From NCBI GenBank assembly GCA_000182565.2, contig KQ257471.1: a stretch of 64,000 nucleotides of DNA, one strand, 5' to 3'. Below, one piece after another: positions 1-41,200 of the stretch. Source of the stretch: Spizellomyces punctatus DAOM BR117 (lineage: Eukaryota). Every line of letters begins with the position of its first letter. The first letter of the stretch is position 1. The notes under the pieces were generated by a model. The model searched no databases, was not told the origin of the DNA, and saw only the letters and a list, made by a program, of their open reading frames with translations. A program made the translations under genes and the position numbers.

Positions 1-369
1 CCAGAGCCCAAACTGCCTTTTCAATGCTTTTTCAATTCTACCCCTGTTACCCCCCACTAAATATGTTGTTACTCCTCATCGTCGAAAAGTGTCGCATTAT
101 CCCAACATTCATCACTAACAGTTGATCATGTATCCACAGAAAAAGTCTGTAAATTTCTTGTCCTTTTGTGTCCCATCCACATTCCACTCGTCAATTTTCA
201 GTCGAGATTCCTTGACATAATTGTCAAGGTAGACTTTCAATCGCTCCACAAGATGACCTTTTTTACCTTTGAAGTATTCCTGGATTTCTCGATCCATTTT
301 TCCTCGGATCTCTGCTGTAGTAACAAAGCAGTCGAGATCATCAACCTTTTCAATGTGTTCATTGATCCA
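1..369. repeat. Inner part of left inverted repeat (reverse complement of 20802-21171)
   Basis: Base-by-base match; I saw only one substitution (FFCGY vs FFRGY) and one C/G-run indel. Confidence 0.95.
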
Positions 370-4100: not shown

Positions 4101-7100
4101 CAGATGAGAGAATATCCAAATTCAAAGCCGTTGCATTATTTGTACCAATACGCAAATTACTAGCGGAGGCTCGAATGATGTAGTCTCCAGCAACGGTATT
4201 TGTTACCCATTGACCTGCTGTTGCTGTATATCCGAATGATGCATTGTTTATTTGAAAGGCAGCAGCGGCTGTAGTAGATATAATAGCATACTTTCCCATG
4301 TACACTGTGCCTTGCACTCCTAATCCACCGGGAATTTGTAATGCACCTGTTGTTGTAGAGGATGCATCATTTGTAGCATCCAGCGTAACGATTCCAGTGT
4401 TTGCCTGTATTGTTAGTCCTCTAGCGGTCTGTGCTTGAAGCTGAAGGTTACCAATATCGTTTCTCAACGTCATTGCGTTAATCCCACCATCCGAACTCCG
4501 GTTGTTTCCATTCGAAAACATCACTCCAGAACCCCCTGAAGCCGTTAGATAAAGAATGCTGCATCCGTTTGTCCCTGTACTCGGATTGCTTACGATAAGG
4601 GAACGTAAACCGTTTACAGAAGAGGCTCCGACAGTTAGGTCACTACCAACAAGGCATGAACCATTTGTGTCCACTCTTAGACCCAGAGATACTGCACTAG
4701 ATGTCCGTCCGTAAATGTAAATCGGCTTGTCTTGTGCTCCTAACCACGTAGCAGCATCACTAGCGTACCCTAAAAAACCAGAACCATCCAGACCCAGCCA
4801 AGACGATTTTGTACCGTCAAAACTATTTGAAATAAAGACAGACGAGCCTCCTGCTACAGAGGTGGTCGTTTGAACTCTGCTTCCTGTAATGACTTTCCCT
4901 GAGATATTGCCACCAAATGTAACATTATTTGAAGTTAGATTAGTTATCTGGCTTCCGACCCAAGGTTTGATAACATCATTGTCGTAATCTCTTAACATCG
5001 AGAGATTGATTGCTTGCTGAGGGTATTCGTATTTGATGCCTCGATAACATGAAGGCGTATCAAACAAGAGACGAGTACAACCTCCTATTGGATCAGAAGC
5101 AATTGCAACATTGCTCCCGGGTTCAAGTGGTGGCATGAAGGTAACAGGGTCTATTGGTTCGTAAACGGGGTTTCCATCGCCATCGAGTATAGGTTGTCCT
5201 TCCGCATCTTGTTGAACCTTACGTTTGCGTGACCCTCCGAAAATCATAGCCCATGGAAATGCACTTGTAATAGGAAGAATTGAATTGACAGCCATGGGAA
5301 CTGTAAGAGGAGGACTAACATTTGCAGGAAACGGAATTGTGGTCAACGGAGTCACTCCGGACAAAACAATTACGTTGCCCCCAGGAACATCCGTTTTCAA
5401 CACTTCTGCGGTATCAGACTGTTCAGTATTATCGGTATCCCTTTGTTTCGATAGTGGCATAGGGTCAATGAGTGTAAAGTTGTAGAGCGGGTACGAACCT
5501 GTTATTATAAGGTTTGGACTGTTACTTACGAATTGTGGCGGAATCATGTTATACTGAATGGTATTGCCGACAACGACCACACTCCCGTATGAATTGGTCG
5601 ATCCGATGTAATTGCCTTTCAAAGTATCCCCCACCCGAAGAACGGTATCGCTTCCTGTAAGAGAACATGAAATCAGATCTCCCGAAACTTGCACTCCATT
5701 GATACCTCTTAGGTTCGTTGACAAAATCGCACCATTTTTTTGCAGTCCAATTCCCGCAGCGATGTTTGAACTCAGAACACCATTGTTTAGAGTCAGATCG
5801 GGTGACTGTGCAGTAAGAGATAACCTGAACTCGTTGCCCACCCTGCTTACCCCTTGGGAGGCTGTAAAGGTATCCCGTATGGTACCTCTGTTGACCATAG
5901 CCAAACCGCTGTTAGCATCAACTTTTAGATCGAGTTGAAGGTCATTCTGTACTCTCTCGATACCATTGCTGCAAGTCAGTACGTCTTTAATGGTATCTGC
6001 TTTGACCATTTGGAGACAACTGCCAGCCTCACATTTGAGAGAGAGCATAATATCGTTTGTAGTGCCAGGACGAACCGCCACTCCATTAAAGTCCTGGAAA
6101 ATGTACCCACCTGTGAGTGCATTTCCAACAATTCTGATGGTCTGATTATCGACCAAACAGCCTATCTCTCGACGTCCAGCAGCCTCCGGACTCACGGTGA
6201 TCGCTCCAGTTTGAGAGCCTTGATAAAATTGCGAAAGATAGTCTTTACTTACAGCATACGAGCCACCTCCAATCGCAGGCAATGTTCCGCTTAACTTTAC
6301 ATTGGGTACACGCAACTCCTGAAGCGTGGATGAATAAGTGAATGAAGAACTTCCCGAGTAGCCATAAGTAAGGTTCCCATACATGATTTGTTCATATCCG
6401 GGTGATTTCAGGGACAATCTCGAACCCGCTTGACTGAATGTGGAACTATCTACCATAAGGCGAATGGCTGTGGTGTCTACCTCTCCTAAAACATTAGTCA
6501 TTTCAGTCAAACTATCGAATCCAAAGTCGAGCCATGAAGACCCGATGTCTAACAGCGTATCCGCACCGCTGGATGTCTTTATAGCCCCAAATGCTTTGAA
6601 CAGTTGGCTTGAGTTTGTTTCGAGTTCATCTGAACTATTCACCTTCAAACTCTTGTGAAGTTTGACACCAATTCCATTATCCCGATATAGAGGTTTCTTC
6701 AGTGTTTCTAGAGGCGGCGGTGGTGGAAAGTTCACTGAAAGTCCGTTTTCGTTAATGGATAATGTCTCATCCACTCGAATACCAACCGTCCGCGATTCAT
6801 CATCACGGTACATTGGGAACTCATAATTTTCGGGAATCACTTTCAGTTTTTCTTGTTCTACAGATAAAGATGAATCATCAAACTGAAGTTGGATATCATG
6901 ACCCTCTTTTGAGTAGACAAGAGGTTGATACGCAGATACGTCGATTGTGGTCAACCGACTCTCCTCATCAATTTCAAACCTCTTGTTATCAACATTTAAT
7001 TCAATGGATACGACGCCATGTTCATTCGTACAAGGTAAGCATTCAGAGGTGGTTTCAACCTCGTTGACTTTAAGTTCACCATTTTCATTAGATAAATGCT

Positions 7101-7239
7101 TAAATTCTCCAACATCGAACCCCTTTATCTTGGCTCCAGCATCGAAGCCAACCATTTCGCCTGTCACATATGGAGATAAGAGATTTGTGTTATCTACGGT
7201 ACGTAACCCCGTAGAATTTCTACTATTAATTCCAGACAT
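1132..7239 (-). CDS. Large fibre/spike-like virion protein (2035 aa)
   Basis: Short Gly/hydrophobic shaft-like repeats in the N-half; repeated TTDSTSxTTGA(L/F)QVxGGVGI and KQxASPLLDxIS modules in the C-half; lies in the capsid module. Confidence 0.75.
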   Translation of the reverse strand: MSGINSRNSTGLRTVDNTNLLSPYVTGEMVGFDAGAKIKGFDVGEFKHLSNENGELKVNEVETTSECLPCTNEHGVVSIELNVDNKRFEIDEESRLTTIDVSAYQPLVYSKEGHDIQLQFDDSSLSVEQEKLKVIPENYEFPMYRDDESRTVGIRVDETLSINENGLSVNFPPPPPLETLKKPLYRDNGIGVKLHKSLKVNSSDELETNSSQLFKAFGAIKTSSGADTLLDIGSSWLDFGFDSLTEMTNVLGEVDTTAIRLMVDSSTFSQAGSRLSLKSPGYEQIMYGNLTYGYSGSSSFTYSSTLQELRVPNVKLSGTLPAIGGGSYAVSKDYLSQFYQGSQTGAITVSPEAAGRREIGCLVDNQTIRIVGNALTGGYIFQDFNGVAVRPGTTNDIMLSLKCEAGSCLQMVKADTIKDVLTCSNGIERVQNDLQLDLKVDANSGLAMVNRGTIRDTFTASQGVSRVGNEFRLSLTAQSPDLTLNNGVLSSNIAAGIGLQKNGAILSTNLRGINGVQVSGDLISCSLTGSDTVLRVGDTLKGNYIGSTNSYGSVVVVGNTIQYNMIPPQFVSNSPNLIITGSYPLYNFTLIDPMPLSKQRDTDNTEQSDTAEVLKTDVPGGNVIVLSGVTPLTTIPFPANVSPPLTVPMAVNSILPITSAFPWAMIFGGSRKRKVQQDAEGQPILDGDGNPVYEPIDPVTFMPPLEPGSNVAIASDPIGGCTRLLFDTPSCYRGIKYEYPQQAINLSMLRDYDNDVIKPWVGSQITNLTSNNVTFGGNISGKVITGSRVQTTTSVAGGSSVFISNSFDGTKSSWLGLDGSGFLGYASDAATWLGAQDKPIYIYGRTSSAVSLGLRVDTNGSCLVGSDLTVGASSVNGLRSLIVSNPSTGTNGCSILYLTASGGSGVMFSNGNNRSSDGGINAMTLRNDIGNLQLQAQTARGLTIQANTGIVTLDATNDASSTTTGALQIPGGLGVQGTVYMGKYAIISTTAAAAFQINNASFGYTATAGQWVTNTVAGDYIIRASASNLRIGTNNATALNLDILSSGNVIINTTTDATSSTSGSFQVKGGVGIAKSLYVGGDVYTNGVKLATESSLTTSIATKQNASPLLDAISGLTTTPNSFVMGTAGGFTVSPVSTILGGLQPLLTTSSALNVNSLTTSGGIFVQGTSDIVFRVDNVGNGLLTGGLLVEHDLNVEGLIIQNGVEVAMQQWSVATMTGMTSPLSQSLTSLQTLVQNNKAAADTALATKQSASALLDSISGLTPAANTFIMGTPTGFSVVPTSNILSSYQPLITSSTALSFNSATVGRGITIQNGAASTTLSLVNTGSNVTWGMRVAGSTGDGTLSAGGFGLNSSYNNTGFVLRVSNTGVTQIPNTTDSTSVTTGAFQVSGGVGIGKTLTLGAGGGGLQPAAIVINAPSSATASTAVLISNNAASSNSWGIYHAATNGTGILTNGSLGFYNYGTSAHQFILKANGTIAITSTTDSLSTITGALQVSGGLGVAKMLYVGGDIFSNNLKLATESYVGTAIANKQASSPLLSSISSLALSANSFIVGSSATSFSVKTPEEVKTILGITNVDISGKQNASPLLDSLASMSPMSNMFVMGDDVQGFTLVNDISVRSILNIVDYAPSISALQTSKQDVITSSSNLLANTILANDTSEATTVSSGALQVKGGIGVSKSIFSGGNITGKVLIAASTGGYFKLRSDTPSTKGDYTISYNNSGDALHVHLAGSSDSIDQRRYEFGHYSSDTFGTWNSRFSVNTYTGDLISSGNLTIGSPLNGLRAIILKNLDSGSNSCAIQYFQNAAGSAVMFLNGNNRSLDGGVNTMTLRNDIGNLRLQAQTAKGLTIQANTGNVTIDSTTPALSSSTGALVVSGGVAVAAHVVAGGNLYSNGAVYSNGQVCATQPWVASQTFLRNVQVIKLLTKDVWQSNNASKVFYVSTPGKVLMEWMLNLHGTANSNGTLSIFLGQSAGSMPLVYSSDFNFNSGVNRTITAAFVVTGMSDNIAYFTNFSISQAAPDNTTDVTLIKITELGQ

Positions 7240-9144: not shown

Positions 9145-9286
9145 CAGTGAACTACTGCTATTTGGGTGGCGAGGGTGATTGACCCCGATCTCGGGTTCTA
9201 TGTATAACATGTTACTGGACTTCGGGGTCATTTACCCTCAACCTACATCCAACCCCATAATCAAACAGGTAGCGTGTGGTTGTCTA
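9145..9286. repeat. Non-coding stem-loop element; diverged inverted copy at 21648-21797
   Basis: 18-bp stem 9171-9188/9222-9239 (GAGGGTGATTGACCCCGA / TCGGGGTCATTTACCCTC); flanks also align with the second copy. Confidence 0.8.
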
Positions 9287-11984: not shown

Positions 11985-12689
11985 ATGTCCTATAAACCAC
12001 GCCCAATCTTTCCCGTAGGGAAAAAGAAGAGAGATCCTCGTGTTCCACATGACCTGGCATCACTGCCTCTATGTACAACTCTTGTCGCTCTGAGGAAAAG
12101 TGGTAAAAGTGCATTAGTCTGCGGTCTGATTGAGGATGTCTATGCTAAATTACACGATCGAGTCATTATCATGTCCGACACAGTCGAATACGATGCTTCT
12201 GTGAAGGTACTGGCTGAAACCACAAAACATAAAAATATCTACTTTACAGATGAGGTTTCCAATGCATCCATTGCTAAAATTGTAGAAGAACAGAAGAAAA
12301 TGCCTGAGAAGTCACTTCTATTATTCATTGACGACGCTGGTGATTCTGCGCAAAGTAAAGAACTCAACAAGGAGTTATCGAAACTCTATACAAAAGGGAG
12401 GCATTTCAATATAGGAAATATTGTAGCCATCCAGAGTGTAACCGGACAACTTTCACGTAAAATGAAGAACTGCACCACCGAGTGGGTGGTGTTTAAAAAC
12501 AATGCAGAAGACATGAAACTTTTAGCAAAGTTACTTGCTTCCGCCTACAAAGATGATAAAGAAGTTCTAACATTTCTCACCGAGTGCACCAAAGAACCTT
12601 ATTCGTTTGCCTACATCAATAGAGATGCTAGTGATGCTAAAGGAATGTATCGTTACTGTGACTCCAGCGGGTTTCATGATTACTTTTAG
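11985..12689 (+). CDS. A32-like FtsK/HerA genome-packaging ATPase
   Basis: Walker A ALRKSGKS, Walker B LLFIDD, GRHFNIGNIVAIQ motif. Confidence 0.92.
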   Translation: MSYKPRPIFPVGKKKRDPRVPHDLASLPLCTTLVALRKSGKSALVCGLIEDVYAKLHDRVIIMSDTVEYDASVKVLAETTKHKNIYFTDEVSNASIAKIVEEQKKMPEKSLLLFIDDAGDSAQSKELNKELSKLYTKGRHFNIGNIVAIQSVTGQLSRKMKNCTTEWVVFKNNAEDMKLLAKLLASAYKDDKEVLTFLTECTKEPYSFAYINRDASDAKGMYRYCDSSGFHDYF

Positions 12690-12790: not shown

Positions 12791-14077
12791 ATGGAGGAAA
12801 GGAAGCCTAACTGGAAAGATATAACATGAGAAGATGAGCAGCATTTAAAGCAGCTCTACTATAGAGAGCATGCTTACATGGGCAGAGATCGTTTGTACGC
12901 GCTTTACAAAGCAAAGTACCCAGAGAGCGAGATTTCCCAAAGGACCTTGTTAGCATGGTTGAAGACCAACCAATTTGGCAGCGTTGGAGTCGTCCCTTGA
13001 CCANNNNNNNNNNNNNNNNNNNNNNNNNNNNNNNNNNNNNNNNNNNNNNNNNNNNNNNNNNNNNNNNNNNNNNNNNNNNNNNNNNNNNNNNNNNNNNNNN
13101 NNNNNNNNNNNNNNNNNNNNNNNNNNNNNNNNNNNNNNNNNNNNNNNNNNNNNNNNNNNNNNNNNNNNNNNNNNNNNNNNNNNNNNNNNNNNNNNNNNNN
13201 NNNNNNNNNNNNNNNNNNNNNNNNNNNNNNNNNNNNNNNNNNNNNNNNNNNNNNNNNNNNNNNNNNNNNNNNNNNNNNNNNNNNNNNNNNNNNNNNNNNN
13301 NNNNNNNNNNNNNNNNNNNNNNNNNNNNNNNNNNNNNNNNNNNNNNNCAGGAGCCCTCAAACCAATGGACAGGTAGAAAGGATGAATGGCATGATAAAGC
13401 GAGCGCTATTCATGGGGATGCGTTTAGGAAATAGAGACTGGGTGAGTATGTTGCCACAGATTGTAGAGAACATTAATTCCACAGTAAGTTTTGGCAGTGG
13501 TAAGAAACTTCGGATGGTACAAGAGATGGAGGCAGATGTTCAAGGAGCGGCTCAAGCCCAACGTGCGCTTAGGACTAAAGGAAAGGGTGTGAAGGTACTA
13601 CCTCCATTCAATGTAGGTGATGTTGTCAGAAAGTACATATCAGGTCAAGGGACGGATATAAAAAGGCGTGCTAAAATGGGTTACTTTTCTGAAGAGAAGT
13701 ATGAGATAACAGCCGTTGTTCCTAATCCTCACCCTAACTACATGAACTCTTATAAAATCAAATCTGTCAATACTAATCACATACTGCCAGGTCTATATCC
13801 GGCTTGGCAATTGCGTCTAATTCCTAAAGAGGATGCCGCTGGGGAGGCTCCGCAAGTTGAACCTGAGATTGAAGATGATGAAGAGGAAGTACCAGAAGGT
13901 GAGTATGAAGTTGAAGCATTGTTAGATAAAAGAACACGTCGAGTCGGTGGAAGACAAGTAGTAGAATATGAAGTATTATGGAGAGGATATGACCGTGATC
14001 AGTCAACTTGGGAGCCGAGAAGTGAACTTATACGTAATGCAAGAGATGCAGTAAATGATTATGAAAATAGTCACTAA
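12791..14077 (+). pseudogene. Retroviral-type (rve) integrase with C-terminal chromodomain; disrupted, core in an N gap
   Basis: ATG 12791, early TGA, HAYMGRDRLY N-domain, apparent frameshift near 12965; after the gap SPQTNGQVERMN, FNVGDVVR and chromodomain EYEVEALLD...YEVLWRGY...STWEP. Confidence 0.85.
13004..13347. other. Assembly gap (N run)
   Basis: Run of n. Confidence 1.
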
Positions 14078-15075
14078 TTCCTAGGCTGTTCTACAAATGA
14101 CTTGAACAGATTGTAATAGCGCTGATGAACAGCATAGGTATGACCCATCCTACGTTCGATTTCCTTCTGATAAGCGTGATCTCCATTATCCCTTTCAGAA
14201 AGATGCATCCCCACTGAAATTCGAAGGCGTTTCTGTGTTACACGCTTTCCAAACATTCGTTCCATAGCATTACTAAATTCGTCGCTATACCAGGCATCGG
14301 TTGGAATACTTCCATCAGGTTTTAGAAAAAGACGATCCTGTCCATTGCCCTTTCTGACATTTGCTAACATGTTAACATATGGTTGAATGGTGTTTCCCAT
14401 CTGAATGAGGACATTCTTTTCACCAGTCTTATTGCATTTTCGGATGAAGACAGTTTTCCCTTCATTGTTCACCATAACATTAGCGTCTTCACTAATCATC
14501 GCTTTGAAAATATCGCATCTACGAATTTTATCTGCATCCAGGTTCATCCCAAGAGCAATTAGAAATTGATGCTCCACTATATTTCCCTCATTGATGAATG
14601 TCAAAGCGACTTTCAATCCTGCTAAGAGTTCGCTGTAAGGGACATAATTGGCGATATCTTCCTGGGTCATCTCTTGGGATGCTGCTTCATTTTTTGACTG
14701 TTTGAACCTTTCGAATGTCACATTCTTGAAGTGAGAGTGGAATGTGTCTGTAAAATGACTGTCAAGGTCGTCCATTGCATCCTCTGCTAGATGAAGGATC
14801 ATTGCCTTTTCAGCCCTCGTAGCATTGCGTGCTATTTTTGACACCAATTTGATATAATTGTAATATGTATGCTCGTTTGTCCATTTTTCCTTGATCCTGC
14901 TAATGAGTATCTCAGGTGTTTGGAACAAGGAAAGAAGATTGTTGCCTTTGAGTTGATTTAGACGCGATTTATCCTGTTTCTTGGTGTTGGGTGACTGCTG
15001 AATCCTGTCAAGGATGGCATGTAGCGTTTCATATAGAGCCGACTCGGCATCAATGGGTTGGTGGTCTTGTTCCAT
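14074..15075 (-). CDS. Tyrosine recombinase (PLV/NCLDV type)
   Basis: IRRCD (R), NKTG (K), FGKRVTQKRLRIS (xxxR), MGHTYAVHQRYY (H...Y) in correct order. Confidence 0.82.
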   Translation of the reverse strand: MEQDHQPIDAESALYETLHAILDRIQQSPNTKKQDKSRLNQLKGNNLLSLFQTPEILISRIKEKWTNEHTYYNYIKLVSKIARNATRAEKAMILHLAEDAMDDLDSHFTDTFHSHFKNVTFERFKQSKNEAASQEMTQEDIANYVPYSELLAGLKVALTFINEGNIVEHQFLIALGMNLDADKIRRCDIFKAMISEDANVMVNNEGKTVFIRKCNKTGEKNVLIQMGNTIQPYVNMLANVRKGNGQDRLFLKPDGSIPTDAWYSDEFSNAMERMFGKRVTQKRLRISVGMHLSERDNGDHAYQKEIERRMGHTYAVHQRYYNLFKSFVEQPRN

Positions 15076-15176: not shown

Positions 15177-15713
15177 ATGCCAGAACATGTTGTCCTTGAC
15201 ACTGAATCATCTATTGTAGATAAGATTTTCCCTCTAGTCGAACAACTGTACCGAATTCTTGCCAATGCTTCTGGGAAACCACCCACACCACCACCTGATG
15301 GTAAGACGATCAATATAATGTTAGCGGAAGATGAATCCATTTTAAGATGAATGTTTACGAGGTTCTGGAAGAGAGAACCTAATGTTACGGTATTCACAGC
15401 ATCTGATGGTATTGAGGCCATTGAACTCTTTAAAAAGCAACGATTTAATATCATTTTTGTTGATATCGACATGCCTTACAAAAATGGAGTGGAAGTAGCA
15501 CGTGAAATAAGACAGTATGAGAGGGAACACAATCTAGATCAAACGCCTATAATAGGAGTGTCTGGATTCACGGAGCGTCAGTACAAGGAACAGGCTTTTG
15601 CTGCCGGTATGAACAAATTTGTATCAAAAGGAACAGGGTATCAATTGAAAGATATTTACAGAATCGTTGTAGAATACTGTGGAGATCCACTTCGAGGCAA
15701 AACAGATCGATAA
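15177..15713 (+). pseudogene. Response-regulator receiver (REC) domain protein; one in-frame TGA at 15348-15350
   Basis: ATG 15177 in frame; IMLAEDE acidic pocket, ASDGIEA, IFVDIDMP phospho-acceptor Asp, PIIGVSG, AGMNKFVSK. Confidence 0.88.
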
Positions 15714-16063: not shown

Positions 16064-17301
16064 TCATATCGTCTGCATCCGCATTTCATTCCGGTTCGAT
16101 TCTGTGCCGCCGTGCATCGAATTCAGAGGAGTTTCTTGCATTCGTGCCTCCACCGCGTCGCTGTAGATGAGCGCACTAAGGTCTCTCAAACGCGTTTGTT
16201 CAGCTTCCACCTGTGCATCACTGCGCTTGTTCGAGTGAGCTGAGGCATCCGGTGCAGGCGGTTGTGTTACGGGGGTTTGTTGTTCTTCTGGCGACGTCTC
16301 AGCGTTCCCCCTTTGGGGGGACGCGCTGGGGCGAAGCCCATCGGCGCGCTCCTTCGAGCGCTGTGAGCTGTGGTCTGTAGCCGTTGTGGGTTTCCTTGGG
16401 GGTGCTGTAGCTGTTGTGGGTTTCGTTGTGGTGCTGTAGCTGTTGTGGGTTTTCGTTGGGGGTGCTGTAGCTTGTGTGGGTTTCCGTTGGGGNNNNNNNN
16501 NNNNNNNNNNNNNNNNNNNNNNNNNNNNNNNNNNNNNNNNNNNNNNNNNNNNNNNNNNNNNNNNNNNNNNNNNNNNNNNNNNNNNNNNNNNNTGGGTGCT
16601 GTAGCCGTTGTGGATTCTGTTGCGGGTTGGTGGGCACGTCCACATTCAACACTGTTTTTCCACTGCCTGTTTCTCCTTTCGATCCATCTACCAATCAGAT
16701 CGTGCCAATTATTGATGGCCTGTGTCCACTCCGTTCGCCATTGCTGTTGTTGTTGGTCCCCCTTGTCCGGATGATAGTGTCGAAGGACATTCCTATGCGC
16801 GCGGCTTAATTCCTCCCGTGTGTTGGCTTTCATCTGGAAAAACCGAGCCAAGAAGTCCATGTTGGCATCGGTGATCTTTTTGCTTGACAATAGCGGCGGA
16901 TTGGCATCGTATTGCACTGGTGTTTGTTGGTGAGGAATAGCAAATTCTTCAGTGCCTCGACCAGCAGAAGACTGTCCACCACGCTGCTCGGTCGTCCTCT
17001 GTCGTTTCTTGGATCTCGTCCCCGGATCTGGTTGGACATCCGGTTCCTTGCGACGCTTGCCGTTTTGAGCACGACCAGTGGTGAGCTTGAACAGATGGTC
17101 GTAATGGGCAAAGAGGAGATCGTAGAGTGTGTTGTAAGAAGCACTCGGCACGGAGATGTCGCCTACATGGATGAGGTGGAATTTCTCTCGACACGTTTGG
17201 TGAACAGCATCTTCTACAAGGTTTGTGCTTTTCAGGGACGTCCGCACAGCCGTCGTTAGCTCATCGATCAGGGTCATTTTTTGTGGCGTTAGTATCCCCA
17301 T
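16064..17301 (-). CDS. J-domain (DnaJ, HPD) protein with Thr/Ala/Pro tandem-repeat linker; spans an N gap
   Basis: ELSRAHRNVLRHYHPDKGD...WTQAINNW; ATG at 17301; the C-terminal part is probably ORF 16064-16645, frame across the gap uncertain. Confidence 0.72.
16372..16620. repeat. ~30-bp tandem repeat inside the J-domain gene, with 100-N gap at 16493-16592
   Basis: Recurring GTGCTGTAGCTGTTGTGGGTTT units on both sides of the gap. Confidence 0.85.
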
Positions 17302-18411: not shown

Positions 18412-21056
18412 CTGACTATCAACAAACCATGACTGTAGAAATCACCAAACATAAGCAACCAGAATCTGAAGGAACCTTCGTTACTATGGACAAGAAACTG
18501 AAACTCGACCAAAAGCCAAAGATGTTATTCCGTAAAGACTATTTTGGAATTGATAATATTATCAAGTGGGATGTTGAAGAGTATGTCAATAATCACAAGA
18601 AGTATCCCTACTTGACAGAGTTCATTGGTGCTCTACCGGATGACCATGAGATAAATGCCTTTGTGGATTTCGACCTTTCTTATGCCACAGAAGAAGATTT
18701 ACCCTCGGATGAGGAAGAAGATGCTATTCAAATTTTTGTTCTGCAAACTTTTGAATCCTTATTTTTAAATGATCTTTTTTCTTACCGATGTGCATTTTGC
18801 AGGAAAGGCTTTGCGTCTAAGAAAGAGAAGAGTGAAGAGACAGGAGAATATGTAGAGAAGGGCAAGTGGAAAGTATCGTTCCGCATCTTTGCTGACCTGC
18901 GCACCACTCATAAAGAGATGCGAAACCGCTTGCTTCACTACTTTCCCGACATGAGCAAAGCGCCTGCTTGTATTCGTGATAAGACTTTTGAGCATGATTC
19001 GTTTTTTGACCCTTCCGTCTATGAAAAAAATCGCAAGATTTGCTGCGTGGGGAAGAGAAAGAGCCAATATGACTCGCGGGTTCTAGAACATCTTGATACC
19101 GCCGACCCATTAGAAGCCTTCTTGATTCAACACATCGACAAGTATGCAGAATGTGCGGAGTGGGCTATTCAAATGGCAGATCAAAAAGAAGCCCCAAAAA
19201 AGCAAAAGACCTCTACAAAGTCCACGAAGAAATCCAATGATTCTTTTGAGCAAATGGCAAAGGAAGTTATTCTGGAATCATTTCCTAATGTGTACCTGCT
19301 TCGAGATCTCGGGAAAGCCGATCAATTAGATCATGGAATCAATGTCTTTGTCAAGACAAAACACTGCTTTCTCATCGACGCCAATCATGATGTATCTGTG
19401 GCTACTATGTACTTCTCCATCACGAAGTCAGGAATCAAGTTTACATGTAAGCAATGCGATGAGGAGACCGATGCAAAGCCTCACAAGCATACTGGCATCA
19501 AAAAATTGTTCACTCGGATTAACAGTCCTATCCAATCAGATGATGCTCTTTTACATGCATTAACTTCTCCTAGCCATCTCGGTATTGCCCGGGCACTAGC
19601 GGCGAAAAGCGAGGGTGACATTCTCTTCGATGGTAGCAACTTTTGGATGTTTCGGAAGCAGTGGGTTATCATAGCCGATCAAGTTGTCCGGCTATTTATG
19701 AAGAACACGTTGAACCCCCAGTGTGAGCAGTACGTAACAGAACTTTATGATCGTCTATCTGAAGAAGAGGATAAAGACAAGAAAGCCGACATCTTGGAAC
19801 AAATAAGGAAAGTCGAACGCGGGCACAAACTTTTAACTACTAACACCGACATAAAATCCATCATCTCTTGCCTCAAAACGGAGGTGTACAACGAGGGCTT
19901 CCTGAAATGCCGAGATAACAACCCTAATATTATTGGATGCAATAACGGGTACTTTGATCTGCGGGATTATACTTTCAAGCAGTACACAAAGGACATCTTC
20001 ATCACGCATACTGTTGGCTATGACTACTTTGAACGGGATGAAGATTTTGACCCAGACACATATCAGCAAGTATTAGGTGTCGTGGCACAATACTTCCCAG
20101 AGGATGACGAACGAGAGATCGCTCAAATATTCTCAGGATACTGTCTACGTGGTGATCATAAGGAGAAGATCTTTTGCGTTTTCACCGACAAGAGCGACGG
20201 CTTCAATGGTAAGACAAAGTTTGCTCAGATGATCACCATTGCTATGGGAACTTATGCGACCGAAGGTAACAACGATCATCTATATGTAAGTACCAGGTTC
20301 TCGAACCAAAATGGTCATAATGCAGCAATGTTTGCCCACGAAGGAGACCGACTGGCAATCTATGATGAGATGGATGAAAAGAAGACTATAGACACGAAAG
20401 AGATGAAAAGACGCAATGGAGGCGCTACTAGAGGCAAAGGTTGTAGACCATCTTCAAAGGAGTTTGAGTTTGTCGATTTCATGACAAAAATGATCATGAT
20501 TTTTAACAATGGAAACCAACCGAAATACGATACCAGTGATAATCCTTTCCTGGAGCGGATGCTTGTATTGCCTTTTCGAGCCAAGTTCCTTAGTCCCGCT
20601 GAGTACGAAAAATCGGAATATCAATACAAATTCTTAGCAAATCCTCACATCGACGAACGTTTCTCTGTGTGGCGTCCTTACATACTCAAGTGGATGATTG
20701 AAGGGCACAAGAAGTACATGGAAAAAGGATTTAATGACATCCCGGCTGAATGCCGTAAGTGGAAGGAAGATGTCACCAAAGACGTTGATAACATAGAAGA
20801 ATGGATCAATGAACACATTGAAAAGGTTGATGATCTCGACTGCTTTGTTACTACAGCAGAGATCCGAGGAAAAATGGATCGAGAAATCCAGGAATACTTC
20901 AAAGGTAAAAAAGGTCATCTTGTGGAGCGATTGAAAGTCTACCTTGACAATTATGTCAAGGAATCTCGACTGAAAATTGACGAGTGGAATGTGGATGGGA
21001 CACAAAAGGACAAGAAATTTACAGACTTTTTCCGTGGATACATGATCAACTGTTAG
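18381..21056 (+). CDS. AEP primase-polymerase fused to D5-like superfamily 3 helicase
   Basis: AFVDFD (motif I), KVSFRIF (motif II variant), FDPSVYEKNR (motif III), C/H cluster, D5_N IGCNNGYFDL, Walker A GFNGKT, LAIYDE; first ATG ~18429. Confidence 0.92.
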   Translation: MHLGTAIKISTDYQQTMTVEITKHKQPESEGTFVTMDKKLKLDQKPKMLFRKDYFGIDNIIKWDVEEYVNNHKKYPYLTEFIGALPDDHEINAFVDFDLSYATEEDLPSDEEEDAIQIFVLQTFESLFLNDLFSYRCAFCRKGFASKKEKSEETGEYVEKGKWKVSFRIFADLRTTHKEMRNRLLHYFPDMSKAPACIRDKTFEHDSFFDPSVYEKNRKICCVGKRKSQYDSRVLEHLDTADPLEAFLIQHIDKYAECAEWAIQMADQKEAPKKQKTSTKSTKKSNDSFEQMAKEVILESFPNVYLLRDLGKADQLDHGINVFVKTKHCFLIDANHDVSVATMYFSITKSGIKFTCKQCDEETDAKPHKHTGIKKLFTRINSPIQSDDALLHALTSPSHLGIARALAAKSEGDILFDGSNFWMFRKQWVIIADQVVRLFMKNTLNPQCEQYVTELYDRLSEEEDKDKKADILEQIRKVERGHKLLTTNTDIKSIISCLKTEVYNEGFLKCRDNNPNIIGCNNGYFDLRDYTFKQYTKDIFITHTVGYDYFERDEDFDPDTYQQVLGVVAQYFPEDDEREIAQIFSGYCLRGDHKEKIFCVFTDKSDGFNGKTKFAQMITIAMGTYATEGNNDHLYVSTRFSNQNGHNAAMFAHEGDRLAIYDEMDEKKTIDTKEMKRRNGGATRGKGCRPSSKEFEFVDFMTKMIMIFNNGNQPKYDTSDNPFLERMLVLPFRAKFLSPAEYEKSEYQYKFLANPHIDERFSVWRPYILKWMIEGHKKYMEKGFNDIPAECRKWKEDVTKDVDNIEEWINEHIEKVDDLDCFVTTAEIRGKMDREIQEYFKGKKGHLVERLKVYLDNYVKESRLKIDEWNVDGTQKDKKFTDFFRGYMINC

Positions 21057-21114
21057 TGATGAATGTTGGGATAATGCGACACTTTTCGACGATGAGGAGT
21101 AACAACATATTTAG

Positions 21115-21450
21115 TGGGGGGTAACAGGGGGTAGAATTGAAAAAGCATTGAAAAGGCAGTTTGGGCTCTGGATGAAGCATGTAGGGAAAAGAGAGAAGAG
21201 CTCAACCCCCTGTCACTTTTGACTCCATACATGTAGAGACGTACCCCTGTAACCCCCTGTTTTTCATATACGGAACAAAAAAATATATAGAGAGAACCTT
21301 CTCTCTTTTAGAAAACAAAACTAAATATGTAAAAAGATAGGGGTTATAGGGGGTAGCCCTTGATGCTATGTAGAGTGGAAGGACAGGGGTTGGACAGGGG
21401 GTATGGAGGGAAAACCGGCTCTACATACCCCCTGTAAAAGAGGGGGTAAG
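21115..21450. promoter_or_regulatory. Candidate replication origin: CCCCTGT/ACAGGGG iterons around an AT-rich core
   Basis: Multiple copies in both orientations; inverted pair ~21242-21260 / ~21338-21355 flanks an A/T-rich tract. Confidence 0.5.
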
Positions 21451-21552
21451 GACTAAAGAAAAAAGAAGCAAAAGCGGGGACTTAGTCATCCTGCATGCTG
21501 GCTACATAAGGAAACTAATGTCGAGTTAGAACCAGTGTTGAGTTTGAAGTAG

Positions 21553-21600
21553 GTCGAGTTTGGACACGTGAAATATTAGACGCGTAAAATTTTACGTGTA
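21553..21600. repeat. 48-bp direct repeat copy 1 (loxP-like architecture)
   Basis: Matches 22597-22644 with 2 differences; 14-bp arms around an 8-bp spacer. Confidence 0.85.
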
Positions 21601-21647
21601 AGTGCGCTATGTCTGGTGTGAGGTGGCTCGGCTCTCCAAAGGTACTC

Positions 21648-21797
21648 TAGATAACCACGTGCTACCTGTGTTGATTATTGGGTGGTGTAGGTTGAGGGTG
21701 AATGACCCCGAAGTCAACTTGTATGTTATACATGGAAACTGAGATTGGGGTCATTTACCCTCGCTACCCAGATAGCAAGGGAAACCTGGTTCACTGC
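21648..21797. repeat. Second, inverted copy of the 9145-9286 stem-loop element
   Basis: Stem 21694-21711/21745-21762. Confidence 0.8.
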
Positions 21798-22034
21798 GAC
21801 TTATTTGCATGAGTTACAATGCTTAGGTAAGCAAAAGATGGCATCCCACTTTGTCGATGAGAGATCGAACATGTTATATCGATAGGATGAGAGGCCATCT
21901 ATTGGACCATCTTATCGATAAGATGGGAGAGTTCCTTTTCCGCTTATAAAAGAGGGTCGCCGGTCTCCCCAGCTCGAAGCCTTCTTTTCAAAAACGATTC
22001 CATATACAACATTCGAATACAGCTGCAATTAACA

Positions 22035-22433
22035 ATGGAGAAAATGATGAGGCGAGCAAGTGAAGAAGAGCTAAATGAGATGAAGAGGTTCTACCAACTC
22101 ACAGTTGACAATGAGATGCACCAAGCAGTCGTAACAACGAATCGCCGTAGAAAGGAGGCAATTGAAAGGAAAATGGTTAAGAAGGATGTGAGGACAATCA
22201 TAGGCGAAGATGGTTCAAATATGTATGTGGCATCACTAGTAGAGGAGAAGCTAAATGCTTTGGTGGATGACGTCAAGCAGGGGCTAATGGAGGCAGGATA
22301 TACAGAAGACCAAGTGATGGAGATTATCACAATCTACCACAAACAACAAAAAGTGTTGAGACTGAAGGTCTCCCGAGTACCATCAGTAAAGGAAGGTGGA
22401 GAGATGGAGTCCCAAGCTAAAGTGATTTCATAA
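22035..22433 (+). CDS. Hypothetical helical protein near the right end (132 aa)
   Basis: ATG in AACAATG context, TATAAAA at ~21945. Confidence 0.6.
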   Translation: MEKMMRRASEEELNEMKRFYQLTVDNEMHQAVVTTNRRRKEAIERKMVKKDVRTIIGEDGSNMYVASLVEEKLNALVDDVKQGLMEAGYTEDQVMEIITIYHKQQKVLRLKVSRVPSVKEGGEMESQAKVIS

Positions 22434-22596
22434 AGTGTGGCATTTGAACCTAGTGGCAAGATAAAGTGATTTCATAAAGTGTGGCGTTTGAACCTAGTAG
22501 CAAGAATTTGCTCGAGTAAAATCACCAAATGAACTGCCCAAGGGAAACGAACCGCCCAAGGGGAAACGAACCATGGAGTCTTGAGAAGAAGCAAAT

Positions 22597-22644
22597 GTCA
22601 AGTTTGGACACGTGAAATATTAGATGCGTAAAATTTTACGTGTA
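22597..22644. repeat. 48-bp direct repeat copy 2
   Basis: Matches 21553-21600. Confidence 0.85.
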
Positions 22645-22862
22645 TGTCAGAGAAAATTTTCGGCATAGATGCACACATCCCTTCATCAATAGTCCTGGAC
22701 TTGGACAAACACCTTGGAAGACTCGAAACACTTTGAAACACTTTGAAACACTTTGAAACACTCCAATGCATTGGGCAAACACTTCAATACAGCTTATTAT
22801 ATAGAATATTATAAGCCGGGTATATCATATTATACACCGGGTATATCATATTATAAGCCGGC

Positions 22863-22912
22863 TGATACAGTGCATCAGATAAGCCATTCGGCTTATCTGA
22901 TGCACTGTATCA
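22863..22912. repeat. Perfect terminal hairpin: 23-bp stem, ATTC loop
   Basis: TGATACAGTGCATCAGATAAGCC-ATTC-GGCTTATCTGATGCACTGTATCA. Confidence 0.97.
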
Positions 22913-23102
22913 CCTGCGTGCTCAGCTTCTTCACCAAAGAACCAAAGCGAGGTGCCAGGCACCTTGGGAATGACCCCTAAACAGTTACATGGAGTTCCCA
23001 CCACCTCTACATTGCTGCTGCAGCCGAAGTGGACAAGGATTGAATCCTGCAAAAAGTCCGAGAAGATGGTACCCCTCGTTTGATTCTCCTTGCCTGGATA
23101 AG
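22913..23102 (+). pseudogene. Decayed internal fragment of LTR family C
   Basis: Reverse-complement homologue of ~43900-44095 (LSFFxKEPKRGAxHLGNDP...LILLAWI), with many CpG>TpG/CpA changes. Confidence 0.88.
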
Positions 23103-23593
23103 TGTGACAGAATTCTTCTGTCAGTGCTAGGGTTATACTGGTTAGATGTGGTTCCAAACTAGTAGTCACATGACTTTGCTGATGGTGTCAGCATTCATTT
23201 GACCAGAATTAGATAAATAAGCAGATTTAGCCATTTCTGGCTAAATTAGATGAGTATTCTGACACACTGGCATCTGCCCCTTTCAATCATGTGGCACAGT
23301 GTATTTAGGATGACTTGTCTCACTTCTGATTGGCTATAAGTGGTGCAATAGGCTGACAAATAGTTTAGGATGACATGTATGAGTTCTGATTGGTTGCAAA
23401 TGGTGCAATAGGCTGACAAAGAGTTTAGGATGATGTGGGTGAGATCTGATTGGGTAGTTAGGATATAGCATTTGTCAGCCCCTTTGTCTATAAAAAGAGG
23501 ACCTCTCTGAGGCCCCTCAAAAGGAAAATAACAAGTAGTAACCAAGTCTTCCCTAGTTTTCTGTTGTCTTCTTGTCCCTGCTAGCCTGTTACA
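23103..23593 (+). repeat. 5' LTR of element A
   Basis: TGTGACAG...TGTTACA; near-identical to 27384-27996 apart from 60-bp unit number. Confidence 0.95.
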
Positions 23594-27367: not shown

Positions 27368-27383
27368 TCTTAAAGTGGGGGAG

Positions 27384-27996
27384 TGTGACAGAATTCTTCT
27401 GTCAGTGCTAGGGTTATACTGGTTAGATGTGGTTCCAAACTAGTAGTCACATGACTTTGCTGATGGTGTCAGCATTCATTTGACCAGAATTAGATAAATA
27501 AGCAGATTTAGCCATTTCTGGCTAAATTAGATGAGTATTCTGACACACTGGCATCTGCCCCTTTCAATCATGTGGCACAGTGTATTTAGGATGACTTGTC
27601 TCACTTCTGATTGGCTATAAGTGGTGCAATAGGCTGACAAATAGTTTAGGATGACATGTATGAGTTCTGATTGGTTGCAAATGGTGCAATAGGCTGACAA
27701 ATAGTTTAGGATGACATGTATGAGTTCTGATTGGTTGCAAATGGTGCAATAGGCTGACAAATAGTTTAGGATGACATGTATGAGTTCTGATTGGTTGCAA
27801 ATGGTGCAATAGGCTGACAAAGAGTTTAGGATGATGTGGGTGAGATCTGATTGGGTAGTTAGGATATAGCATTTGTCAGCCCCTTTGTCTATAAAAAGAG
27901 GACCTCTCTGAGGCCCCTCAAAGGAGAAAAATAACAAGTAGTAACCAAGTCTTCCCTAGTTTTCTGTTGTCTTCTTGTCCCTGCTAGCCTGTTACA
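27384..27996 (+). repeat. 3' LTR of element A
   Basis: Two additional 60-bp units relative to the 5' LTR. Confidence 0.95.
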
Positions 27997-31000: not shown

Positions 31001-31870
31001 CTACACAGCAACACCCAAACCACCCAAACCACCAAGTCCGCCTGCTCAGCCTGCACCACCAAATCCACCAAAGGGACCAAAAGGACCATCCCAACCCTCC
31101 AAATCTTCACCCTCCAACTCCTCCTCTGTCTCCTCCTCCTCCTCCCCTCTCATCACCTCTGCAAACTCCTCCCCCTCATCCGTCACCACCTCTTCCAAGA
31201 GCCTGGTCAGCTTCGCGATCTCATCACGTACTGCCCCAGCAGCCTTCTTCTTTGCTCTGTGGGCTTTCTCACGCTGGACTTCACTGGGAGGGAAGGCAGG
31301 CAGCCTTCCTCTTCTCCAAGATCTATTAAGGGCCAGATCTTGGAGACCACAATATGTGCCCAGCACCCCCAAACAGATGGGACTGTGTACGGGGAGTGAC
31401 CGCATAACATCTCATTCAGTCCTGGCCAGGCCCAAATGCCTTTGCAACACCTCTTCCCGGTCTTTCCAGTGCTGCAAAAAGGTGCACCAATGAGCTGCCT
31501 CTACAAACTCCTCCTCCACTGCACTCAGCTCGCACGCAGGCTTGGGTACCTTCCCCACCGCTGTGGCCACCTTTCTCTTGGCTGTCAACACCACAGCCTC
31601 AAAAACCCCTCTCCTGCGTCTCTCCTCCAAAACAGGAGTCTCCCTTGCTCTGCCTGATCGTCCCGCACTCGACCCCACACTTGGCGTGGTGGTCTTGGCC
31701 TCTGAAGGAGGAGGGGCTTGGAAAAGCCCCGGTTGCTCCGTAGGGACCAAAGGGACATTGGAACTGGCCACGGAGCTCTCCGCCGTCATCTTGCACAACC
31801 GCCGCAAGAACAAGGTACGCAAAGTTTCACTGGGAACTTTGCCTTTCCCCTTCTCTTCCTTGGGGGCCAT
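31001..31870 (-). pseudogene. Antisense ORF 3' of copia pol (~290 aa, interrupted by TGA)
   Basis: 31412-31870 and 31046-31405 are in one frame; MAPKEEKGKGK start, acidic and Gly-rich tail. Confidence 0.55.
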
Positions 31871-38218: not shown

Positions 38219-41200
38219 TTACCAGGTCGGTACCGGATCTGTGGGGTCCGCTTCATCTGCATCTTGGTTCACGACCCAGATGATACTGGCACGGCCACCG
38301 ACGTTGCAACAAAACCAGATTTGATCTGTTGCGGTACGAACGATGGTACCCGGGGTCACGTCGGGGCCAGTTCTGGTTACGTAGAGGGCCGTAAAGGTCT
38401 CCGCGGCCCTTTTCAGGTTTGTCGCGCGGAAATGGTACTCCGCGTGCTCGTGATGTCGGGGTCTGGTGAGCCTTGCAGAGGCTTCCGCTGCGTTCGCCGT
38501 CCTTAGGAGCACCGTCCTAGCTGCTTCAATGACGGCGGACGCAAACTCGTGGGCGTCGTCGTTCGGCCAATCGGTGAACGGAGCCGTTTTTCGGCTTCCC
38601 GCCTCGTGTTGGGGAACCCCGCGGTCGAGCCAAGCGGCGCACGGAGCTGGGCGCCCTCTTTTTCCGGGTTTTTTCGCGTCAGCAACTATTCCGACCGCTG
38701 CTTCACCACCATCGGTGGCCTTGCTGTAGGGGTCCGCGATGTGGTTTGTGAGGGGCTGGCCCACCGCGTAAGGTTTCGGAGCGTCGACTCCCAGCCAAAA
38801 CTCATGCCCTGGAGTCTGCAGCGGCGCGTTGGGGTTGGTCCGAAGCTGATGAACCCAGGAGTGAACCCAGGTAGCGATCGCAACCCCAAGGCGATCCAGC
38901 ACGCCCTCGGCCTCGAAGTCGCCCGAGTCTTCCTCCCAAGGGTAGCCGGACATGTACGTGGAGGGTACGCTCACTCCTGCTTGTCCTCTGAGATCGGTGT
39001 TCATTGTGTTAGAAATGGAAGTTTTAGTTTCGGTGTCGATAGAAGGGGTTTGCGAAGCAGAGTGAGTGTGTAAGGGAAGTAGGTCGTGGGCGGTTGAAGA
39101 AGAAAAAAGAGGGGGAGCGTGCAGGGGCGTCCTTTTAAGGTCGTCGCCGGCTGATTTTGACAGCTCGGACGCGCGTAAGCGTGATCGGGAGGCTTGGTGT
39201 GGCGTTCTCGACTGGTGAGGTAAGCCACGCGAAACTGGTTTTCTTTCTGGTGAGAGGGCGTGATTATCACGTGAGCTATCGTCCGGATAAACCGCGAAGC
39301 ATTGGTGGTCGGAAGCATAAGCCGTATCTTCCGGGGCGTCGCCTGCAAGGCTGACTACCAAAGAGTCCTCTACTAGCGCGCTAGTGGGAGCTCTGGATCT
39401 CCAGTACTCTTCTAAGGCTTCGGAAGCCTCTGTTAGGGCTTCCTCTGGTTCCCAGGTATCCTCATGGGGTGGGTATCCGGACCAACGTATTCGAAATTGA
39501 CGTTTTCCGCGCCTGGTTCGATGGTCTACTATCGCTTCCACTTCAAACTCGCCATCTGAAGCGTCGGAATCCTCCGCTTGTGCTTCCGCGACCTTTTCCT
39601 CAGTTTCGGCGTCGACAGGCTTCTGGTACGGACGTAATTTCGATATGTGAAACCATGGATGAAGTCGTCTCATCTTGTCTGGCAGTTTTAACTCGTAGTT
39701 GTCGCGGAGAGGGTTACAGTCGGTCACCGTGACTGGTCCCAGCCATTTCGGAGCGATCTTGGACTCATACCCTGCTAGGTTTTTCGTGCTCAGAAGCACC
39801 TTATCTCCTCTCCGGAACTCCAAATGTCGTCGCGATAAATCGTAATATCTTTTCTGCGAATCCTGGGCTTCGATCATCAGATCTCGGATAAGGATGTTTA
39901 GGTCGCCGAGGTGTTTACAGAGCTCTTCCGCATCTGCATTTCTGGTTTCTGACGGCCTTTCAACGATGTCCGCCAGTGGATTGTGGGGCTCATAGCCTAG
40001 GTCCATTCTGAATCGCGTCATTTTTGTCGCCTCGTGTACCGTATCGTTGATAATGAATTCCGCAACCGGAAGAAAGGTGTCCCAGTCGTCTAATCGGGTG
40101 TTGACCATTGTGGTAAGGACCTGCAAGACCGTTGCGTTGTCTCTTTCTGATTGTCCATCACCTTGAGGGTGGTAGGCTGTGGTGAGCTCTTGATTAATCT
40201 TTAGGTTTTTGCAGACCTCCTGCCAAAATCGACTCGTAAATTTGGAGTCGCGGTCCGAGATAATGGTCTCCGGGATGCCGTGCAATGGGACGTAGCGCTC
40301 TATAAAGAGTTCCGCGACCTGAATAGCTGTCGCAGTGCTCTTGAGGGGCCATACGTGGATCCTCTTTGAGCATTTACATGCTATTAACCAAAAGGCGTCG
40401 TACCCTCTGGAAGTAAGTGGGAGCTTGGTTACGAAGTCAGTCGTGATGACTGTCCAGCGTCCCGGAGCTGGTGGTATGGGTTTCAGCAACCCCGGAATCA
40501 GTTGCGGTACCCTTTTTGAGCGTTGACAGGTTTCACATCCTGCGCAGTGTTTTCTGAAATCTTGTGCCATTTTCGGCCACCAGACTTGCGCTGCAGCTCT
40601 AGCGTAGGTTCTTTCGAATCCGAAGTGTCCTCCCCCCTCGTGAAAAAGCTTGCGCACCTCAGGGGTGCAAGCAGGGGGCACGTAAAGGCGCCAAAGGTCT
40701 TCGGAGACTGAAAAACGGTGCCACAGCAGGTTATCTGCACGTTGCCAGTCCTGAAGAAAGCGCGTGTCGGCGGTAGTGTACGTGTCGGGGCTGGTCTCCC
40801 ATAGGAGCGTGCGGGCCTGTTGGGCTATGGGGTGGAGCTGGCCGGTGAGGCCAGCGCGGATGGCGGCAATGAGTGCAGGCTGTAAGGCCAGACGAAAGAC
40901 GGCATCTGCCAGTGTCGAGGAAGGTGCGAGAGCAGCTGGTGTGGTGCGCAGCCGTCGTCTTCCGCGTTTCGACACCCATATTTGGGTCGCGGTGGAGCAG
41001 AGTAGAGTTCCGCGCCAAGTAGCCCGCGAAAGTGTATCAGCGACTATGTGGCAGCGTCCTGGTTTGTGTACGATTGTCATCCATTCGGACCAGTAACTAA
41101 GATCGAGGGCCCAGCGGAGGAGCTTTCGGTTCTCGCCTTTGTATTTGGCGAGCCACAAAAGAGCTCGGTGATCGGTAATGACCGTGAAAGGCAGGCCTTC

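Follow-up and report, generated by a model that had tools for sequence, protein, structure and literature searches.

A perfect 50-nt palindrome at the host junction of an integrated chytrid polinton-like virus: a possible integrase end and snap-back telomere

The window, by which we mean the whole stretch of 64,000 nucleotides analysed here (contig KQ257471.1 of Spizellomyces punctatus DAOM BR117, assembly GCA_000182565.2), carries a viral element on its left side, and the right end of this element abuts a fragment of a Ty3/gypsy retroelement (Table 1). The sequence-only reading had assigned the left side to a polinton-like virus (PLV), and the gene content bears this out with a double-jelly-roll (DJR) capsid protein, an A32 ATPase and a D5_N helicase domain. 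The AlphaFold model of the capsid protein (pLDDT 86.5, pTM 0.83) matched in Foldseek Vp54 of PBCV-1 (E 3.1e-15, TM 0.63), the Sputnik MCP (E 9.3e-14) and the mavirus MCP (E 2.2e-11). In the D5-like protein D5_N matched, and no primase domain was detected. The 2035-aa ORF is probably a fibre or spike protein, judging from its N-terminal match, and this is consistent with the adenovirus-fibre-like proteins described in the text of PMC8502044 for the Powellomyces MELD viruses.

Table 1. Features of the viral element and its right-hand junction, with X7 read depths (positions are those of the window)
Feature	Position	Strand	Evidence or remark
Left terminal inverted repeat, inner part	1-369	.	Reverse complement of 21171-20802
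Probable fibre or spike protein, 2035-aa ORF	1132-7239	-	Weak adenovirus-fibre N-terminal match, E 1.5e-4, 22 bits vs cut-off 22.7
Double-jelly-roll major capsid protein, 417 aa	9373-10626	-	AF2 model and Foldseek
A32-like DNA-packaging ATPase	11985-12689	+	Pox_A32 E 1.9e-7, 31.2 bits vs cut-off 22.8
Integrase with C-terminal chromodomain	12830-14077	+	Chromo E 3.2e-13; visible part 13382-14077
333-aa ORF	14074-15075	-	Tail-to-tail with integrase gene; stop codons share bases 14074-14077
D5-like helicase, 875 aa	18429-21056	+	D5_N E 2.1e-6, 28.5 bits vs cut-off 22.4
Right terminal inverted repeat	20802-22912	.	2111 bp if extending to the palindrome; inner 370 bp matched to left copy
180-codon open frame, stop to stop	21891-22433	+	Inside the inverted repeat
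10-bp tandem repeat AAACACTTTG, 5.7 copies	22707-22762	+	Outer part of right inverted repeat
Three subterminal 21-bp direct repeats	22800-22861	+	Abut the palindrome; repeats 1 and 3 contain ATAAGCCGG
Terminal palindrome	22863-22912	.	Inner arm 22863-22885, loop 22886-22889 (ATTC), outer arm 22890-22912
Candidate right copy of target-site duplication (putative)	22913-22918	.	CCTGCG, first six host bases, part of gypsy relic
Ty3/gypsy pol relic, the insertion target	22913-23101	-	189 bp, matches intact pol ORF
X7 depth, unique interior	20500-20781		8-14
X7 depth, inner repeat	20782-21533		15-30
X7 depth, outer repeat	21534-21909		58-78
X7 depth, outer repeat	21910-22849		77-122
X7 depth, bin with palindrome	22850-22943		56

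Two runs of N, at 13004-13347 (344 bases) and 16493-16592 (100 bases), mask 444 bp of the element in the gene-content scans. The first of them hides the N-terminal part and most of the catalytic core of the integrase, which was assessed on its C-terminal half. An rve_3 match to this protein had an E-value of 0.048, below the curated cut-off, and in BLASTP the visible half was collinear with a gypsy integrase (E 1e-8), the aligned part beginning just past the gypsy rve stretch. Across 22 viral frames, including all 11 ATG ORFs of at least 150 aa, Pfam revealed no polymerase (pPolB), HUH nickase or resolvase family. Of the features by which PLVs are recognised, a DJR capsid, an A32-type ATPase and a D5-type replicase with no pPolB detected are found here, and the terminal inverted repeats are seen over 370 aligned columns. 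Also present is the pairing of an RVE integrase, as judged from its C-terminal half, with a non-pPolB replicase, which marks the palindrome-ended class of elements discussed below.

Two further frames of the element deserve a comment. The only homologue of the 333-aa ORF beside the integrase comes from Powellomyces hirtus (36% overall), and the C-terminus is almost invariant between both proteins. This C-terminus resembles the R..K..R..H..Y catalytic pattern of tyrosine recombinases, a likeness that we take as a lead only. The tyrosine-recombinase reading found no support, with Pfam, NCBIfam, PHROGs and PDB searches all negative and an AF2 pLDDT of 46.9. The other frame, a 120-aa ORF at 15351-15713 (+), matches the receiver domain of response regulators (Response_reg E 8.8e-18, 64.9 bits vs a cut-off of 30.2), which is an unusual cargo in a small capsid-encoding virus.

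The virus lineage is already in print. One integrated PLV of S. punctatus, placed in the 'SP' group, was reported by Bellas and Sommaruga in 2021 (PMC7805220), and from Powellomyces data six 'MELD virus' genomes have been described that encode adenovirus-fibre-like proteins and non-PolB replicases (PMC8502044); the present element belongs to the same virus lineage and shares with these viruses the fibre-like giant ORF. The words 'hairpin' and 'palindrom' do not occur in the main text of PMC7805220, nor does 'hairpin' in the text of PMC8502044. In a library of 1.84 billion proteins, 55 relatives of the capsid protein reach E ≤0.001. The nearest named ones are proteins of S. punctatus DAOM BR117 itself, in the same 90% cluster (SPPG_02195, 97% identity), followed by those of Powellomyces hirtus (68%) and Thoreauomyces humboldtii (52%). 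The 23 relatives of the ATPase at E ≤1e-5 come from Powellomyces, Spizellomyces sp., Phlyctochytrium, Thoreauomyces, Geranomyces and Gaertneriomyces; the one from 'Powellomyces chytrid fungus MELD virus 2' shares 70% identity with the present ATPase. For the helicase a single relative was found, in Rhizophlyctis rosea. Searches for DNA of viral relatives in IMG/VR with the helicase, the MCP, a 4-sequence MCP alignment and the ATPase alignment, and in metagenomes with the ATPase alignment, confirmed none; a 26-sequence MCP alignment was too divergent for a pattern search.

The sequence-only reading had described, at the right end of the element, a stem of 23 perfectly paired bp around a 4-nt loop, with TG at its start and CA at its end (22912), and re-reading of the letters gave an exact match. 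The two arms of 23 nt each are 100% complementary around the loop ATTC, both when read directly and when computed, and make up 50 nt in total; TG opens the palindrome, CA closes it at 22911-22912, and the GC content of the stem is 43%. The whole window was scanned for hairpins with a stem of at least 12 and a loop of at most 10, with 30 block shuffles as the control. Of the five rows returned, four are the palindrome itself, read with loops of 4, 6, 8 and 10, and the remaining one is a 12-bp stem at 31313-31346. Stems in the shuffles reached 11 at most, so that the palindrome is by far the longest perfect hairpin of the 64-kb window. Folded as ssDNA, it reached -26.8 kcal/mol for the centroid and -29.1 for the MFE, compared with a mean of -8.87 (sd 2.14) for shuffled controls (z = -9.45; 0 of 200 shuffles as good). 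The palindrome is perfect, far beyond chance. In the databases, a search of IMG/VR for the exact 23-nt outer arm and a search of JGI metagenomes for a 21-nt part of it found 0 occurrences each.

The palindrome lies directly at the border of the host DNA. In a pairwise alignment, gypsy homology opens at 22913, with CCTGCG against CCCGCG in the intact copy, and the 58 bases to the left of 22913 have no match in that copy; hence the last base of the palindrome is the last non-host base, within about 1 base. This agrees with the virus-host junction as originally claimed, in which the hairpin ends in CA at 22912 and a gypsy relic is entered mid-ORF from 22913. The relic is 88.9% identical over 189 bp to 44091-43903, which sits within a 2492-aa gypsy pol ORF on the minus strand (38219-45697) encoding RT, RNase H, integrase and chromodomain. 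This piece is the sole fragment of that gypsy relic within the window, its right side being truncated by a younger gypsy, whose LTR is recognised from the identity of 23101-23400 with 27382-27681. The virus is located in a nest of gypsy and copia elements. Insertion among retroelements, together with a viral chromodomain like that of the neighbouring chromoviral gypsy integrases, fits heterochromatin-targeted integration.

The position of the palindrome relative to the element follows from a long inverted repeat. The first 369 bases of the window match the reverse complement of 21171-20802 with 99.46% identity over 370 columns, which means that the element has a terminal inverted repeat, with ~1741 bp on the outside of the left copy falling upstream of the window. 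If the right repeat extends to the palindrome, the left tip would be found about 1.74 kb before the window starts, and the whole element would measure about 24.6 kb. The distance of 1.7-1.8 kb that had been predicted for the left tip agrees with this geometry, which itself would place 22912 at the tip of the element. The inner boundary of the repeat falls within the helicase ORF (shared part 20802-21056), so that the last 85 helicase codons are duplicated, inverted, at the left end. Likewise, the 180-codon open frame lies inside the repeat and is therefore expected in two copies per element. A 130-bp stretch of the repeat (21648-21777), which contains an imperfect palindrome with 33-nt arms (21694-21762), recurs inverted at 9156-9286 with 83% identity, in an intergenic position upstream of the capsid gene, and may be a shared regulatory or mobile piece.

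Short repeats crowd the outermost part of the inverted repeat. The motif ATAAGCC forms the loop-side end of each palindrome arm and is also contained in the first and third of the 21-bp repeats, and four of its seven occurrences within the window fall in 22811-22896. At the middle 21-bp repeat, 59 of 101 reads have AAGCC at 22835. The array looks like a set of putative binding sites, but it is only a modest clue because its units are not independent.

Read depth gives a view of other copies of this end. Four short-read runs with the same species label, all ChIP libraries with reads of 38-51 nt, were mapped to 20500-23300; the X7 depths in Table 1 are means with both strands summed. Their steps indicate that the outer ~1.4 kb of the inverted repeat is present in more copies than the rest of the element, and Logan contigs carry a different sequence left of ~21610. 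It seems that the end module (21534-22849) is common to other elements or present as solo or truncated copies. For PLVs associated with entomopoxviruses, the text of PMC11296320 argues independently for an 'end module' of replicase, recombinase and inverted repeat that is related to poxvirus repeats. At the palindrome itself the depth is about 4-7 times that of the unique interior, yet roughly half that of the adjoining repeat, with a drop from 115 at 22849 to 65 at 22862, and some copies may lack the palindrome or differ there, given this drop. No Logan contig of X1 or X2 covers 22850-22943. With reads of 38-51 nt, no variant inside 22863-22912, including the loop at 22886-22889, no inversion of the loop (flip/flop) and no read bridging 22912/22913 was among the rows listed, and the same holds for an excess of molecule ends at 22863 or 22912 and for a loose end at 22912. 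The X7 depth weakly supports a shared, conserved, multi-copy tip rather than a one-off structure.

A close parallel to this end has been described for the endogenous virophages and PLVs of Halocafeteria seosinensis (bioRxiv 10.64898/2026.07.28.741278, 30 July 2026). According to that preprint, 52-nt palindromes flank the inverted repeats of one virophage subtype, and palindromes stand at inverted-repeat tips, beside target-site duplications, in several element subtypes. They favour elements with non-pPolB replicases and certain RVE integrases, and the authors propose hairpin-primed replication or, alternatively, accidental annealing at single-strand breaks. The present element shares with these a palindrome of ~50 nt (52 there, 50 here) at the inverted-repeat extremity on the side of the host junction, a non-pPolB replicase, an RVE integrase and the hypothesis of hairpin priming. 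It differs in its host, a chytrid fungus instead of a stramenopile, and in its capsid lineage, and it is seen here at the right end only. At that end it fits the description of the Halocafeteria class in every feature. The sequence-only reading had regarded fold-back ends that also serve an integrase as a distinctive strategy; this claim is weakened, as the same architecture and the hairpin-priming idea already stand in the preprint. We conclude that the element is a fungal member of the recently described palindrome-ended, integrase-bearing, non-pPolB PLVs and virophages.

The palindrome is best explained as the outermost 50 bp of the long terminal inverted repeat of an integrated chytrid PLV of the Spizellomycetales lineage. 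Integrases of the rve type join TG...CA ends. According to our model, the palindrome would be the true viral terminus, in which the extended duplex presents a blunt end finishing in CA-3', and the virus's own rve-type chromo-integrase would have joined this end to the gypsy relic; an identical left end would be expected. When the free linear genome replicates, the end may melt and the 50 nt snap back into a 23-bp hairpin with a base-paired 3'-OH, so that the ends could be copied with no need for a protein primer. As to function, we infer that the integrase end could double as a snap-back telomere. In favour of the model stand the X7 depth at the palindrome, the ATAAGCC motif common to its arms and the 21-bp repeats, the Halocafeteria parallel and the Pfam scans, in which no protein-primed polymerase was detected. 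The genome carries a D5-like helicase; the D5-like protein itself may be able to prime, in which case hairpin priming would not be strictly required. Against this model stands the nickase for terminal resolution, which was undetected by Pfam in the 22 viral frames. For the combined reading, with terminus, integrase substrate and snap-back primer in one, we would put the probability at roughly 45%.

The main rival takes the same letters for a duplex binding site only. The palindrome would then be two inverted copies of a terminal recognition sequence that, together with the ATAAGCC(GG) repeats, assembles the integrase, or the helicase at an origin, on dsDNA, and no hairpin would form. Many DNA transposons have subterminal arrays of binding sites, and the direct and inverted copies of one 7-mer in the last 86 bp before the tip resemble them; reads that show the motif in the middle 21-bp repeat of other copies add to this. 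Equally, a perfect palindrome can serve as a site where proteins bind the duplex, and the Pfam result for the nickase, which counts against hairpin priming, suits a duplex site. However, the perfect 23-bp symmetry exceeds what a 7-bp motif needs, and to our knowledge integrases of the rve/chromo class do not require palindromic ends. Moreover, the association with non-pPolB replicases, as reported in bioRxiv 10.64898/2026.07.28.741278, points to replication and not to integration. Hence we consider a duplex site without a hairpin unlikely, though it keeps a real chance of being right.

A variant of the hairpin model would dispense with the HUH nickase. In such a rolling-hairpin scheme the integrase would double as the terminal-resolution nuclease, so that replication, end repair and integration would all rely on a single cis element and a single enzyme. 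Since each arm ends in CA, 3'-processing of both strands of a head-to-head replicative junction by the integrase would set free two genomes, both carrying a self-complementary 3' tail that could fold into a hairpin. The pairing of a long repeat with a hairpin might additionally imitate the telomeres of a helper giant virus that infects zoosporic fungi. We regard this scheme as rather improbable.

Alternatively, the palindrome may be the target of a recombinase or resolvase, cut and rejoined for the resolution of telomeres or of concatemers and dimers by the 333-aa ORF or by an enzyme of a helper giant virus, which would give covalently closed ends. Substrates of protelomerases are perfect palindromes of ~50 bp, as is this one, and the ORF beside the integrase has the conserved C-terminus reminiscent of R..K..R..H..Y mentioned above. 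The long inverted repeats with a D5-like helicase mirror genomes of the poxvirus and chlorovirus type, and giant viruses of zoosporic fungi exist, as described in the text of PMC13533422. But the assignment of the ORF as a recombinase failed in Pfam, NCBIfam, PHROGs and PDB, with a poor AF2 model. In addition, a resolution site should separate two viral arms, whereas here the outer arm adjoins host DNA, so that cutting at the dyad would break the chromosome. A resolvase target is thus improbable.

The palindrome might also be a one-off by-product, formed if a viral end with a break or nick annealed to itself and was extended by fill-in synthesis prior to this integration, or an artefact of assembly. 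The fold-back alternative is raised by the authors of bioRxiv 10.64898/2026.07.28.741278 themselves, and the halving of read depth across the palindrome is in its favour. Nevertheless, the depth there still stands at several times that of the unique interior, none of the listed variants falls inside, and the region is covered by independent reads. Moreover, a CA-3' end would have to arise by chance at the point of fold-back (1 in 16), and in the preprint the palindrome recurs across several Halocafeteria element subtypes. An accident of this kind is very improbable.

Helitron 3' ends follow the rule CTRR-3' next to T. An independent small fold-back element between virus and relic, either a MITE or the 3' end of a Helitron, is scarcely credible, since only the hairpin shape speaks for it, while the palindrome is present in a single copy within the window, its depth is not above that of the adjoining repeat, it has no flanking duplication of its own and it ends in TATCA followed by CC; the Helitron/MITE reading was rejected on these grounds. 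Occurrence of the hairpin independently of the virus, the case that the original proposal had named against itself, found no support, as a search of the window with the arm sequence at up to 3 mismatches returned two matches, which are the two arms (expected 0.00 from 100 shuffles).

Compared with other known systems, the proposed snap-back telomere combines familiar parts. Like the rolling-hairpin telomeres of parvoviruses, it is a palindrome at a genome end, able to fold back so that its 3' end primes synthesis, and the integrated copy displays what corresponds to the 'extended' duplex form. It differs from them in belonging to a dsDNA virus of ~24.6 kb with another kind of capsid, in having a simple stem instead of a Y or T shape, and in the results given above for the HUH nickase (none by Pfam in 22 frames) and for flip/flop (none among the rows listed, with reads of 38-51 nt). 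Like the ends of poxviruses, asfarviruses and chloroviruses, it has a hairpin-forming tip on a long terminal inverted repeat, in a genome that encodes a D5-like replicative helicase. The hairpins of these viruses are covalently closed, AT-rich and imperfectly paired, whereas here the stem is perfect with 43% GC and the open end is joined to host DNA by an integrase, as we propose. With Polintons/Mavericks and LTR elements the present virus has in common an rve integrase with a chromodomain, as well as TG...CA as in LTR elements and a probable 6-bp target-site duplication, of which a candidate copy is seen, as in Polintons. Classical Polintons encode pPolB, and their replication is considered protein-primed; the Polinton/Maverick definition includes no terminal palindrome.

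These observations bear on how the ends of linear genomes are copied in PLVs and virophages without a protein-primed polymerase. A palindrome at a putatively integrase-joined end is now seen in a second, unrelated host lineage, fungi here and a stramenopile in bioRxiv 10.64898/2026.07.28.741278, and in both lineages it accompanies a non-pPolB replicase and an RVE integrase. The second instance strengthens the case for a functional and widespread feature over a local accident, although it does not by itself establish the mechanism. Being phylogenetically distant from Halocafeteria, it lies in a host lineage rich in related elements for comparison, and it offers a culturable chytrid host in which snap-back ends could be sought.
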